Assembly (NCBI RefSeq): GCF_044324785.1
Contig: NZ_CP172127.1
DNA: 64,000 bases
Direction: 5' to 3' (one strand)
From: Escherichia coli
GTDB taxonomy: Bacteria > Pseudomonadota > Gammaproteobacteria > Enterobacterales > Enterobacteriaceae
In this document: in pieces, positions 41,301 through 47,300 of the stretch
Layout of the letters: each line of letters begins with the position of its first letter
Numbering within the stretch: position 1 is the stretch's first letter
Made by a program: the position numbers

Positions 41301-44300
41301 AACCTGACGCCGTTGTGTGCAACCATAATCTGCTTCATGCTGCACGCTCCCGTCCCTGGTTGTCTGTTGGTGACAGCGGAGCATTGCTGAATGCATTTGT
41401 TAATCCGCCAATATCCAACGCGTATCCGGGGTGTAGTTGCACTGCCGGGTCTTCGCACTGATTACCCCAAACATCGAAGCCATGAGACGTCTGGCGGGCG
41501 AACAGTTCAATGCGAGAAACATCGCCTAACAATTGCACAAGTTTTTCACGAACGACATCTGGTTTTCTTGAATGCTCAAGCCGCGGTGCGGTAAATGACT
41601 GAACGATCCCTGCATTAATGCGCGGAGGTAGTTTTCCCTTAACTGCAAACAGGCAATCTTCACTATTGGCGCGAGTCATGTGTCCCATACCCATAACCAG
41701 TTTATCTGGTTGTCGACTACCACATTTTATCCACGTGAAGCCCTTCATGGTCATCAGACGGAACCCCCAGGCTTCAACAACTTTTAGTGCTTCGAGTGGT
41801 TGTGTTGGCACCCACCACATGGCCAACAGACAGTTTTCATCGGCCAAATCCCACACAGGAAGGCGGCAGATATCCATCACACTCATAACCGGATATTTAA
41901 AACCGGCACCGCGATTACCATCTGCGGCTTTGTCCCGGTATACCCAGGGTGGATCTGCATAGATTAGTGTGTATTTCTTAGTCATAAACCACCCCGCAAC
42001 ATCCTATACCGCTATAGTCTCCACGGCGAAGGCCGTTACCTTTTGTGATACATTGGTCCCTGCGAACCGCGATCCTTGCACGCTCAACATCACCAGAAGC
42101 AACATCCATACACTGAAGCCAAAGGTGAGCGGCAATGCGGAACTGCCCTTTTTTCTCTCTTTCAATCGCGCGTTTTTCGATCTCTATCGCCGCAGGAGTA
42201 ACGGCGACAATCTTTGACGGACTGCGCATTGAAACCTTATTCATGTGATATTTTTCAAGTCGGCTTAACTTTCTCACTTAATCCAACCCTCTCTGAAAAT
42301 TAATGCCAGCAGATAAAGCCATGCTGAAACAGAGGCCAGGAATAAGTACCATCCTGACCATTTGATCCAGTGCCTTAGCAGCGCACTCATGCAGCGTTGC
42401 TCACGGGACGATATACACGTTGCTGAACAGGAGGTTTTTTACCCTGGAACTCTGCCGGGCTTGCTGCCTGACGTTCATCAAGCCAACGCTCAACTTCATC
42501 ACGGTTCCATGCGCAGCGTTTATCGGTGATATACCAGCGTTTAGGAAATTCCCCTGCGCGCTCCATACGGTCGATAGTGCTCCATGACAGTGGCACCACC
42601 GCCAGGAGTTCTTTCTTACCTAATGCACCTTTCATGAATACCTCTCTTGGTTGCAGTGCGGCGCACGTGGCGCCGCGGTGGTGGTTACATAGATGTTTCG
42701 TTTAATTCTTCCCGACGAACGCTGTAAACGTCGGTTGCTTTTGCCAGCAGTTCGTCATCATCTGAAAGTTTTTGTGCAATGTATTTGTAAGCCTTATCCA
42801 GTTCGGAGACAGTGCTGTAATTCATCGCTGCGCTGGTAAAGGCCATCAGCATTTCTTCTGGATCACGGCTATCCTCTTTACGCGTTTGCTCATCAGGCTT
42901 TTTCATTGGTTTAGCGTTGATCAGACTGTTCATTCCCGCAGCAGTAGTTGTTTGCGGAGTAATGTCTCGTTCAACGCGCGGTGCCGTTTCCTGTAATTCG
43001 TCAGGGGTGTAAACACCGAGAAGTACATCAGGAGCGTGCAGGCGAGCCCATCGTTTCGTGCAAAGATAGGCAAGCTGCTGGCGCGGATCCTGTTCCCACA
43101 ATGGAGAGTTACGCACTCCGGCTTGCGCCATACTGATGGTAAGCTCACGTGGTTCTGCTTCTCCTTTAAGAACTGCTGACACAGTTACCGTCAGATTCGG
43201 TGATTTATCTGTTTTGCCGTTAACATTCGACCAGTCACCGCTCCAGCGATAATTCAGGCGTGTCGCCAGCAGGCTGGAAGAGGATACGACCGCGTTTACC
43301 AACTGTGCTTCGTAGCCTAACGTTCCGTTTACCACATGCGTTTTCTGCGCCACGGCGAAAGGGTTCATTCCCCACTGTGCCGCCTGCATGGTCACCGCCA
43401 GGCAATCGGCAGGTTTGCCTTCAAGATGTTTCGGTACAGTCGCTTTGCTTTGTGACATCAACTCAGCGAAACGCACCAGTTGATTCATGCCCTCGGGGCT
43501 GAAGATTGCCGCAGCAGTGCCTACAGTTGCGCCTGGTTGTGATGTGATTGCGATATCATTGCTCATACGTACATATCCTGTTTACGTGCCCAGTCAGGGC
43601 GTTTAATAATTTCCACTCCGCCCCACTCATCGTTGATGCGGCATTCGTGATAGGTATTCAGATCCCGGCGGAACAGAGCGTGCCCGGCATCGACATCCGG
43701 CGCATCCAGCTCGAACACGCGTACCGGATACCGACCACAATCAATGCTTTCGCTCACGGCAAGAAAGAAAAAACCATGCGGCTGACCAGTAACCCTCATT
43801 GCGCCTTCGCGGTACATTGCGTCCTGCACGTGGTAGCGGAATTCCTCGATGTGACGTGCAAAACGGTCCATATCTGCAACCTTTTTCACGTCGATGATCA
43901 CGTTGTGCTCGTTCAGCCATTTGTCTGGACGAATTCGGCACAACTCACCCGTCTCTTCATCGTTCCAGTACATTGACGCTTCGCAGTAACCAGGTGCTTC
44001 CAACATCCAGCGTGCCGCCGGGTGAGCCATTGCGCTATCACGCATCAGCTCCAGTTTCCGCCACTGCTCTTCATCAAGTACCGAAATACCCATATCCGCC
44101 ACATCACGAAGAAATGCCTCTTCGTCAGCTTTACCTTGTTTCGTCCGACGATCGAATTTCGGTGAAACAATGAAGCGTTTGTCGAACTCTCCAGGCTCCA
44201 GAAGCAGACAGTGCAATGCGGTTCCCATATCCAGTGCAGACTTTTTCTCTTCGTCTTCTGGTGCTGCCTGAATCCATTTAAGAAGCGCCGGATTCTTGGC

Positions 44301-47300
44301 AACCATGTCCAGTTGCGACTTACTCACGCCGTCACCGGCGTGGTAGTCTTCGTTGCTGATGTCGAAATAAATTCCCGGTTTCATGCCGCGTCCCTCTGTC
44401 CATCAAGCTGATCAGCCAGATCCCAGCGGGCGATAATTGCCATTGCCTCTCGCCGATAGGCATCCATCAGTTCTTCGAACTCAGGGCTGTCTTTAGCAGC
44501 CTCCAGTACTTCCTGACGAACGCCTTTGCCTGTTACAACGTCGAAAGTTGAGGACAGTTGATGAAGCCGGATACTCTCAATCAGTTCTACTTGTCGGTCA
44601 TATAGCTGTTCTGACAGTCGGTAGTCCTTGTCGAATGCCTGCATGATTTTTTGAAGATTTTTCTGCTGATTAACGTTCATTATCAGCCCTCCCATATCTC
44701 GTTATCGTTGGCCACATCGCGAGCTTCTTTGCTGACGAAAGCCCACTTAATGCCTTCCTGTAAGGTGCGGAACTTCCAGCTCATGAATCCGCATGCAGTA
44801 ACGCAGTACCAACCGTTGATGATTTTCCACTGCATAACTTGTTACCTCGGTCTGTTACCGTTGAGGTAATAATTATGCGTATATGGTTTGATGTCAATAG
44901 ATATGAGTTAAAAAAATTACCCGTTAGGTAATCGAATAGGCAATAAAAAAGCCGCCATAAGGCGGCTTACTTACTGAAAAATATGATTTTATTGTTTGTT
45001 TTTTTCGTTCTGGTTGATGACAAATTCAATGTAACTTTCGATCTTTGCTTTCTCGGTTTCGGGTAACAAAGCGTAGCGCGAGCGGTCATAGTTGATAGTC
45101 GCAGGGTCGTGCGGGTGAATCAGTAATTCATAGCCGTGACGCCCGAATGCGGATGCAACATTCTCCAGGGTGGAAATGGAAACGCTGACCTCATTGTTTA
45201 ACAGGCGGCTGATTGTCACCTGGGCGACGCCGGATGCGCGGTGAAGTTTTCCCTGCGTTGAAAGGTCGCGGCTTTCGCTCATCCAGCGTTCCAGGTTGTG
45301 AGCCGCCAGTTGACCAATGTCGCTTGGTCCGACAGGCTGAAAACCTTCCTGAGAAAGCGAGCGATCGATATCAAGCCAGTTACGGGGTTTATTGGCGGCA
45401 GCTTCAATTTTTCGCGCAACCTGGTCGCCGATAACCTTCTTGCCAAGAGCCCAGCGGTTTACCAGATTTGCCTGAGTTCCAAGTTTTTCAGCCATCCGCG
45501 TCTGAACACCATTGAATTCACGGTCGATCAAGTCGTTGAGATTTTGCCTGCGGACGTCCTGGATACTTTTCATTTTCTGGAAAATCGCCTCATATCTGAA
45601 TCAGAAGATGATTCAATTTAAAGCAATATTACCCAACAGGTAAATGCACCTCATGGGTAACTATCCTTGATTTTTGTTACCTTATAGGTGAATATTTATT
45701 ATCTGAAATAAATATCAGGCAATAGCTATGAGCGATAACGGACATTTCGATTTCAAAAAGCACTGGCTTGCACTTACTCCGGATGAGCGTGAAGCCTTCG
45801 CACAGGAAGCCGGAACGACGAGTCACTATATCCAGACTCACTTAACAGGTAAGCGCAAAATGCCAGGTAAGGTATTGATGGATGGGCTTTTTAAAGCCTG
45901 TAAATCAAGACAATGGCTGCGCTCAAAAGCAGAACTGGCATACTTCTTCTACTCATGATATCCAGCCACAACCCTCTGTAGACCGCCATCCGGCGGTCTT
46001 TTCATATCTATTCGTACCTCAAAGGTAATAAAAAACCAAATATGGTTGATCTTTTTTTTGTGTCAGCACAAAATAACCGTAATCCCAATACTAATAACAG
46101 GGCTTACCATGGAAATCATTACACGTATTGATGCCGCAAAGCGCGGACTTAAACGCTACTACACCGGAAAAACATGTAAGCACGGACATGACAGTGAACG
46201 CTGGGTTTACAACGGACACTGTGTTGAGTGCACCATGGAATCAAACCGTCGTATCAGGGCAGAGATTAAGCAGATCATGATTAATTCCTCCCCACAACAT
46301 TCAAGCTGATAGCGGAGATTAATCATGAGCAGACATGCAACAGATTGGGCCTGGGAGACAGATCCAGGTAGCTCGTCATTAAAGCTCATACTGCTCTCGA
46401 TGGCTGACAGAGCCGATGAATATAACCTCTGCTACCCCAGCATAGAACGCCTCGTTAAAGACACTTGCCTGAATAAAAAAACCGTGCAGGCCGGACTTAT
46501 ATCGCTCATGAAAATGGGGCTTATTTCAGATACCGGGGAGAGAAAGGGAGCGACAAAAAGAGTGCGGGTTTTCTCTCTTAATATAACCAAAAACGGGAAC
46601 ATTAAAGGCAACCGAGAGGGGGGCAATGAACCCGAAAACGGTAATGTTACCGAAAACGGGAATATACCCAAAAACGGGATGTTGAATGATCCCAAAAACG
46701 GGATGTTGAATGATCCCAAAAACGGGATCCAGAACCAGTCATATAACCAGTCATTTAACCAAGAGAGGGAGAGCAGGACAAAAAACGGGGATTCTGTGCA
46801 TCATGACCCCGGCGCAAACAACGCCGTGATGAATAACTTTGTTCCTCCTGGTGGGCCAGGGCAATTAGGCAAATTTGTCATGCATGAACAATGGCAGCCA
46901 TCAGATGACTTTCTTCGGAAAAGCTCATTGCAGGGGATCTACCTGGACAGTCTGCCAACGGCACAGGAACTTGCAGAGTTCAGAATTTACTGGATGGCTG
47001 AGGGTAAGGCATACCATCAGGCACAGTGGGAGCAGAAGCTGGCAAGGCGGCTGCAGATTAGCAGACAGAAGCAATCAACATTACCTGATAACAACGTTCC
47101 GCACTGGAACAGCCCTGAAGCGTGGGAGGATTTCTTGTGAACAACGTTTTTACCGCAATACAAAACCGTGACGGAGAAGCCCTTTCTCGCATGTCAGGTT
47201 ATGAGCATCAGTACACCAACAATGACAACGTAGTGAACATGTCAGCAGAGAGGCTTGTTGATGCCCTTTTCAAACAGCTGAAACAACTGTTTCCGGCGGC

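Follow-up and report, generated by a model that had tools for sequence, protein, structure and literature searches.

The systems closest to the locus described here are RecE/RecT of the Rac prophage and Red of phage λ. In Rac, a RecE-type nuclease domain is paired with a true RecT. The annealing proteins of the two kinds differ in the length of the tail, which has 26 residues in LiRecT versus about 70 in Redβ; the C-terminal domain of the λ annealase binds the exonuclease and the host single-stranded DNA-binding protein (SSB), and for other annealases this question is open (PMC11611040). In Photorhabdus, the prophage operon Plu2934/Plu2935/Plu2936 comprises three genes, the small and formerly unannotated first gene having been proposed to encode a Redγ/Gam-like protein; its exonuclease shares 70% identity with Redα, the figure for its single-strand annealing protein (SSAP) and Redβ being 29%, and the genes follow the λ order (PMC4381043). 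The locus that we investigated lies in a stretch of 64,000 nucleotides from an Escherichia coli genome (assembly GCF_044324785.1, contig NZ_CP172127.1), to which we refer as the window, and it contains overlapping genes for a nuclease and an SSAP.

These genes probably form a homologous-recombination module in the early-left operon of an integrated prophage of the Uetakevirus type (phiV10/TL-2011b/ZX5-like), in which a short RecE-type exonuclease is combined with an SSAP of a third family. An initial annotation of the window had described an overlapping pair at 42685-44384, and two minus-strand open reading frames (ORFs) occupy exactly these coordinates:

42685..43566, minus strand, SSAP gene (ORF, 293 aa, 32.2 kDa calculated)
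43563..44384, minus strand, short RecE-type nuclease gene (ORF, 273 aa)

The stop codon of the nuclease gene and the start codon of the SSAP gene share a 4-base ATGA overlap (sequence GTATGAGC). The locus resembles Rac RecE/RecT in its order of nuclease and then SSAP, in the overlap of stop and start, and in the 5'-3' resection followed by annealing that would be expected of the products. It differs from the Photorhabdus operon, which encodes a true Red-type pair, whereas the window combines a RecE-type nuclease with a third-family SSAP.

Nuclease

The nuclease matches the Pfam family PF12684 (DUF3799, PDDEXK-like) with 77.1 bits, the gathering cut-off being 26, and in PHROGs it falls into phrog_412, "exonuclease VIII". 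In the NCBIfam model for exodeoxyribonuclease VIII (NF007259, 877 positions) it covers positions 606-873, with a score below the cut-off of this full-length model, of which only the C-terminal third is present. Residues 12-268 match the crystal structure of the RecE C-terminal domain (PDB 3H4R) at an expectation value (E) of 1.5e-76, and BLASTP gives 48% identity to residues 595-862 of Rac RecE. In this alignment H58, D154, D165 and K167 of the nuclease stand opposite the identical residues H652, D748, D759 and K761 of RecE, which we take to be the PD-(D/E)XK active-site residues. The motif NEDYHAG...SKSQL, on which the initial annotation had relied, occupies residues 11-25 and has its counterpart in NENYHAG..SKSQL at residues 605-619 of RecE.

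The earlier assignment of the nuclease to the RecE type was thus borne out. Its wording, "RecE/YqaJ-type rather than λ Exo-type", was nevertheless confused, as λ Exo is itself a member of the YqaJ family and scores 106 bits with the Pfam model PF09588. The nuclease has no Pfam match to YqaJ and no similarity to λ Exo (BLASTP E = 0.11), and in this respect the locus differs from λ Red. It also differs from Rac RecE/RecT: PF06630 (Exonuc_VIII), located at residues 2-178 of Rac RecE, is absent from the 273-aa nuclease. Judged from these alignments, the protein is clearly RecE-type, a "short RecE" that is equivalent to RecE residues 595-866 only and consists of the catalytic domain without the N-terminal part of about 590 residues of the 866-aa enzyme.

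Annealing protein

The simplest description of the locus would be a canonical RecE/RecT pair, with the SSAP as a RecT orthologue and nothing mixed about it. NCBI, PGAP and the phage records use the name RecT or RecT family, the gene order is that of recE-recT, and the nuclease truly is RecE-type. The SSAP matches the Pfam RecT model PF03837 with 110.1 bits (gathering cut-off 24; residues 35-197 on model positions 2-188), and the same model is found in all of the at least 120 close homologues among the matches listed, which are only E. coli copies about 99% identical to it. However, in control searches PF03837 also scores λ Bet (116 bits) and Rac RecT (189 bits). Because it scores Bet, RecT and the SSAP alike, PF03837 is a model of the superfamily that is unable to separate Bet from RecT, and we rejected it as a judge between the two; the name RecT is uninformative for the same reason. 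The RecT-specific models TIGR00616 and NF007351, on which Rac RecT reaches 416 and 465 bits, give no match to the SSAP at E ≤ 10. Comparison of the SSAP with RecT yields E = 0.56 in BLASTP, and comparison of the family alignment with RecT yields E = 0.48 in hhalign. The long linker and the helical C-terminal domain of the SSAP, described below, are both missing from RecT. We therefore consider a canonical RecE/RecT pair unlikely. The initial annotation had held that hidden Markov model (HMM) results would speak against it if they assigned the two proteins to a single canonical pair family. The Pfam RecT match next to a RecE domain, together with the names RecT and exonuclease VIII, can be read in this way, but with a model that also scores Bet the comparison does not discriminate.

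PHROGs divides these proteins into three separate families, with Bet in phrog_252, RecT in phrog_148 and the SSAP in phrog_561 (1.4e-144). The SSAP itself has no match to phrog_252, and none at E ≤ 10 to the Bet model TIGR01913 (cut-off 76.95 bits), with which λ Bet scores 169.5 bits. We sampled the family through a search of clusters at 50% identity, in which it comprises 6,915 clusters at E ≤ 1e-3. Among 143 diverse members, 56 match phrog_10056, seven match phrog_2780, four match phrog_252, these weakly, and none matches phrog_148. λ Bet itself, besides belonging to phrog_252, matches phrog_10056 at 5.5e-64 and phrog_2780 at 3.7e-11. On these profile comparisons, the SSAP represents a third family of the RecT/Redβ superfamily and is an orthologue of neither Bet nor RecT.

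Where signals beyond the family exist, they point toward Bet. BLASTP finds a local similarity only (E = 0.002), between residues 157-218 of the SSAP and 143-211 of Bet, a region that includes the ERDITP motif. The family alignment compared with Bet in hhalign gives 1.6e-4 over 52 columns at 51% probability. A family HMM built on the N-terminal domain matches Bet with p = 7e-4, exactly at the two segments that had been cited in the initial annotation, versus p = 0.08 for RecT. The AlphaFold2 (AF2) model of the SSAP, with a predicted local distance difference test score (pLDDT) of 90, predicts a Rad52-like/Redβ-type annealase fold for the N-terminal domain. In a fold search with this model, the N-terminal domain of λ Redβ (7UJL) is the closest match and the sole SSAP structure found, and LiRecT is not among the matches listed. 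The weak sequence matches, the fold, the architecture and the ERDITP linker motif suggest that the SSAP is closer to Bet than to RecT, although in a weak sense. The description of the annealing protein as Bet-like thus holds to the extent that it is nearer to Bet than to RecT in weak signals, and fails as a statement of membership in the Bet family.

The domains and motifs of the SSAP are the following:

42982..43518, minus strand, N-terminal annealing (DNA-binding) domain, residues 17-195, including the WxxDPxQQLAY...GVYTPDE helix
43357-43380, minus strand, AQWGMNPF segment, residues 63-70
42862..42981, minus strand, disordered linker, residues 196-235, with pLDDT <50 at 217-228
42955-42972, minus strand, ERDITP motif in the linker, residues 199-204, conserved
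42688..42861, minus strand, C-terminal three-helix bundle, residues 236-293, with helices at 236-247, 253-266 and 271-292 and pLDDT of about 97

The three motifs named in the initial annotation, two in the SSAP and one in the nuclease, are all present. In λ Bet the counterpart of AQWGMNPF is ANQYGLNPW, and ERDITP recurs identically at residues 191-196; RecT lacks it. The SSAP shares with λ Red the ERDITP, QxGxNP and W...P.....GxY..DE segments. Of 137 diverse family members, 23 have an ERDITP-type motif following the conserved GVYTPDE anchor, compared to 0.005 expected in shuffled tails. This excess, together with the match of the family HMM to Bet at the cited segments, indicates that the cited motifs are shared beyond chance. 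ERDITP might be a short binding motif. It lies a few residues after GVYTPDE in the SSAP and after GIYDKDE in Bet, and it recurs regardless of the partner nuclease.

The predicted Redβ-type N-terminal fold, followed by a disordered linker of about 40 residues and a helical C-terminal domain, gives the SSAP the layout of λ Redβ; RecT has only about 25 residues after the Pfam domain. By analogy with λ, the C-terminal bundle is presumed to be a domain that binds the partner nuclease, SSB or both. An HMM of this domain finds it in RecE-partnered as well as in YqaJ-partnered relatives. The idea that the type of C-terminal domain segregates with the type of nuclease was accordingly rejected: one domain type occurs beside both, and its fold does not dictate the type of partner. 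In some members the C-terminal helical domain is present in two tandem copies (SSAP residues 235-338 in locus L011, 235-363 in L096 and 230-363 in L093).

Distribution and nuclease partners

The 1.7-kb region of the pair shares 97.7-99.3% identity with ZX5 (genus Uetakevirus), TL-2011b, PAS61, phiv142-3 and further phage isolates, and about 92% with phiV10. In the phage records the SSAP carries the label RecT or recombinase and the nuclease the label exonuclease VIII/RecE-like, the exact SSAP protein is in NCBI under the name "recombinase RecT", and the pair is present in 476 of 5,426 complete E. coli genomes. The pair is therefore already known and widely annotated; in the phiV10 literature we found no report on its function.

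These data also bear on the view that the two genes are non-functional, decaying remnants of a cryptic prophage. The canonical RecET sits in the defective Rac prophage, and no more than ~25 kb of the prophage studied here, its left part, falls within the window, too little for a judgement on its integrity. Against decay, both ORFs are intact, the catalytic and family-invariant residues are conserved, overlaps and gene order are maintained, and near-identical genes are carried by the isolated, viable phages ZX5, TL-2011b, phiV10, PAS61 and others. We find this explanation hardly credible.

In all 80 related viral contigs, whose SSAPs are 52-100% identical to that of the window, a RecE-type nuclease is encoded directly upstream of the SSAP, usually with the identical 4-base overlap. 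Further out in the family the partners change. We surveyed the genomic context of 12 diverse representatives of the 50%-identity clusters, 35-55% identical to the window SSAP; in six of them the SSAP gene is immediately preceded by a gene for a YqaJ (λ Exo-type) nuclease and in three by one for a DUF3799 (RecE-type) nuclease, while one has no nuclease there and two lie at a contig end. The order is always nuclease and then SSAP, in contrast to λ, where bet precedes exo. Partners have been swapped within the SSAP family, annealase and exonuclease families are combinatorially shuffled, and a mixed pairing is ordinary. The initial annotation had singled out the locus as a mixed Red/RecET pair. 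A RecE-type nuclease does stand beside an annealase from the Bet side of the superfamily, but the annealase belongs to a third family and, given the counts above, its pairing is nothing exceptional.

One could also assume a recent chimera, in which a true λ-type Bet was recombined beside a RecE-type nuclease to give a new and possibly poorly matched pair. The exact ERDITP and the Bet-like QWGMNPF of the SSAP would fit this, as would the mosaic make-up of phage early regions and the exchange that the SSAP has undergone in its own N-terminal domain in phiV10-type phages (see below). However, the SSAP lies outside the Bet family in both TIGR01913 and phrog_252. The pairing moreover is old and stable: besides the constant partner and the usual overlap in the 80 viral loci, the two proteins diverge together, and RecE-type partners also accompany more distant SSAPs of the family, at about 42-50% identity. 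No close relative of the SSAP (>70% identity) was seen beside a λ Exo/YqaJ nuclease among the 80 loci. A recent chimera is very unlikely.

Some peculiarities of individual loci may be recorded. In the phiV10 contig, nuclease and annealase are fused into one 586-aa ORF, "putative recET" (3182-4942); the fusion is caused by one extra A in a run, GCAAAACAGG versus GCAAACAGG in the sister loci, possibly an error of sequencing in the phiV10 record. This fused ORF is probably why the phrog_561 profile extends over 633 positions and matches the nuclease as well. A gene of the RdgC family is located 0.7-1.4 kb downstream of the annealase in two distant loci, one with a RecE-type and one with a YqaJ partner (L010, 4615-5541, and L094, 4882-5790). 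An exonuclease of the RNase_T family is encoded directly downstream of the annealase in L096, and an AcrVA2-like gene is present upstream in L006.

Co-variation and domain exchange

Among 69 distinct combinations in viral loci, with all identities measured against the window proteins as single reference, the identity of the nuclease correlates most strongly with that of the SSAP linker (Spearman 0.91), followed by the C-terminal domain (0.86) and the N-terminal domain (0.60). The N-terminal domain is the least correlated even though it is encoded adjacent to the nuclease gene. Co-adaptation of the nuclease with the SSAP linker and C-terminal domain would give such a pattern. The phiV10-type loci illustrate the same division: the nuclease is 97% identical to that of the window and the SSAP C-terminal domain 100% (93-100% for the C-terminal half), whereas the SSAP N-terminal domain is only about 68% identical and carries a 19-aa insertion. 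The phiV10-type annealase (loci L051-L054, L056, L060, L061) is a mosaic with a cassette swap inside the gene.

Upstream genes and a predicted Gam-like fold

The gene string to which the pair belongs reads, on the minus strand, HTH (helix-turn-helix) repressor-like gene, 50-aa ORF, 99/104-aa ORF, nuclease, SSAP, AlpA-like regulator, MT-A70 methylase and AntA-like gene, and lies in the early-left region of the prophage. The features outside the pair are the following:

44381..44680, minus strand, gene for the 99-aa acidic protein (longest ORF to 44695; likely start M6)
44683..44835, minus strand, 50-aa ORF at the head of the gene string (hypothetical protein in TL-2011b (gp09), ZX5 and RefSeq)
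44869..44897, minus strand, promoter-like site TTGACA-17-AATTAT upstream of the gene string (10/12 matches; consensus scan)
44949..44968, minus strand, terminator-like hairpin of 8 pairs (6 G-C), then a T-run, just past the HTH gene (consensus scan)
44989-45573, minus strand, HTH repressor-like gene upstream of the gene string (HTH_3 match; "repressor" in the ZX5 annotation)
38831..40081, integrase of the prophage (ORF/Pfam listing)

Promoters and terminators in the consensus scan are not more numerous than expected from shuffled sequence, and it is the position alone of the promoter-like and terminator-like sites that is suggestive. No tRNA gene is found beside the integrase within 36000-40000, which means that the attachment site there is not a tRNA gene.

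The end of the 99-aa ORF and the start of the nuclease gene likewise share an ATGA overlap, which couples the two translationally, and the 99-aa ORF is kept in this slot in 67 of the 80 viral loci. The protein is acidic (pI 4.7) and is annotated as "hypothetical protein" in RefSeq (PGAP) and TL-2011b and as "unknown function" in phrog_856. The ZX5 record (MW722083) has an annotation gap without a coding sequence, at 12577-12876, exactly at this ORF. The AF2 model (pLDDT 90) consists of four helices; the GamS fold, for comparison, combines a long N-terminal helix with a helical dimerisation domain (~98 aa). In a Foldseek search of PDB, the best six matches are all λ GamS (5MBV, 2UUZ, 2UV1; probability 0.80-0.99, TM 0.55-0.78) and cover up to 97 of 98 columns; the seventh match has a probability of 0.08. 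Alignment with Gam in hhalign gives E = 0.0046 at a probability of only 7.5%, in the register of the end-to-end GamS match, and the two have a D..EF[EQ]E motif in common. A BLASTP match to Gam at E = 0.002 was treated as noise, as its register conflicts with the structural and hhalign alignments, and a comparison with RacC revealed no similarity. From the predicted model, the 99-aa protein likely has a Gam-like fold. The locus would then share with λ Red a small acidic protein of predicted GamS fold encoded ahead of nuclease and SSAP, and with the Photorhabdus operon the three-gene prophage organization with a small, previously unannotated first gene.

Whether a Gam function goes with the fold is less clear. 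The protein differs from λ Gam in that sequence models do not connect the two: Pfam, including Gam (PF06064), gives no match at E ≤ 1 for 16 homologues, phrog_259 (Gam) does not match the 99-aa ORF, and a PDB profile search does not return Gam. The slot ORFs of the sister loci reach only sub-threshold Pfam Gam scores of 13-14 bits, which are unusable as proof. Phages with RecBCD inhibitors reportedly avoid Chi, and phages with a recombinase only over-represent it (PMC3784561). In the prophage part of the window (38701-64000), Chi (GCTGGTGG) is observed three times versus 1.6 expected, and in ZX5 (32.6 kb) four times versus 2.1 expected, all sites in the prophage and in ZX5 being on one strand. 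Chi is thus not avoided, and by the published trend the prophage looks like one that encodes no RecBCD inhibitor, which disagrees with the Gam-fold ORF. Left of the integrase (1-38700), the window contains nine Chi sites, about one per 4.3 kb and mostly on one strand, a host-like density. We put the chance that the 99-aa protein inhibits RecBCD at about even. A more far-reaching interpretation is a three-gene Red-like module, in which a cryptic Gam-fold RecBCD inhibitor is joined to an annealase whose Bet-style linker and C-terminal domain hold a RecE-type nuclease, so that the family amounts to a natural experiment on partner specificity; we regard it as doubtful.

Relation to EHAP1-like proteins

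Iyer, Koonin and Aravind reportedly recognized, in 2002, an EHAP1-like family, also called "enterohemolysin 1 (Ehly1)-associated protein", within the RecT/Redβ superfamily. EHAP1-like proteins are described as a distinct RecT/Redβ subgroup in E. coli and Salmonella (PMC8093625). The TL-2011b orthologue of the SSAP (98.5% DNA identity; locus L004, 1501-2382, from JQ011317) is labelled "enterohemolysin 1". It is this label, together with the setting in enterobacterial phages, that connects the SSAP to the EHAP1-like family, a likeness drawn from names and context, where no difference was noted, and not from an alignment, and phrog_561 probably corresponds to the EHAP1-like branch. Temperate phages of E. 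coli O26 carry the Ehly1 sequences (PMC6784236), which a later study (Oscarsson 2002, as cited in PMC4164713) reported not to code for hemolysins per se. The label "enterohemolysin 1" on an annealase is a historical misnomer.

Discussion

The interpretation that we favor is a prophage recombination module made up of a short RecE-type exonuclease and an SSAP of a third family. In such a module the nuclease would resect double-stranded DNA ends 5'->3' and leave 3' single strands, and the SSAP would cover the resected strand and promote its annealing with complementary single-stranded DNA. Translational coupling through the ATGA overlap would fit the co-production of the two proteins. The SSAP linker and C-terminal domain may contact the nuclease, as the λ precedent and the co-variation suggest. 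Together the two would allow end-dependent recombination, the formation of concatemers and exchange among related phages.

Several observations weigh against this interpretation or parts of it. The biochemical activities of nuclease and SSAP are those that we infer by homology to RecE, RecT and Redβ. The similarity between the SSAP and Bet is marginal, as judged from the short hhalign match and its probability. Searches of PDB sequences, both with the single SSAP and with the profile of 143 family sequences, recover neither Redβ nor LiRecT, and the SSAP is linked to Redβ by fold comparison only. With the iterated HMM of this family's C-terminal domain, the C-terminal domain of Bet gives no significant match; this is a further difference from λ Red, and homology of the two C-terminal domains is unproven. 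The sharing of this domain across both nuclease types weakens the case for its sole role in partner specificity. The co-variation data are phylogenetically non-independent in addition to relying on one reference, and the connection to EHAP1 derives from a GenBank product name and a secondary citation instead of an alignment to the original EHAP1 sequence.

The practical weight of the finding is small: the pair has been catalogued before, is frequent in E. coli, and joins many other shuffled combinations of exonuclease and annealase. The Gam-fold ORF, the linker motif in common with Bet and the natural domain swaps are modest extras. For annotation, the name "RecT" here reflects a superfamily Pfam model that covers λ Bet as well and is silent on the branch, and the 99-aa upstream gene probably merits the note "Gam-like fold". 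For recombineering, the locus offers a compact nuclease-annealase pair native to E. coli, which may bring its own Gam analogue. Partner recognition could be tested with natural variants that have a different DNA-binding domain but retain the nuclease and the C-terminal domain of the annealase. If the three-gene reading were true, the SSAP family would represent a ready natural experiment on the partner specificity of exonucleases and annealases, a question that reviews describe as open.

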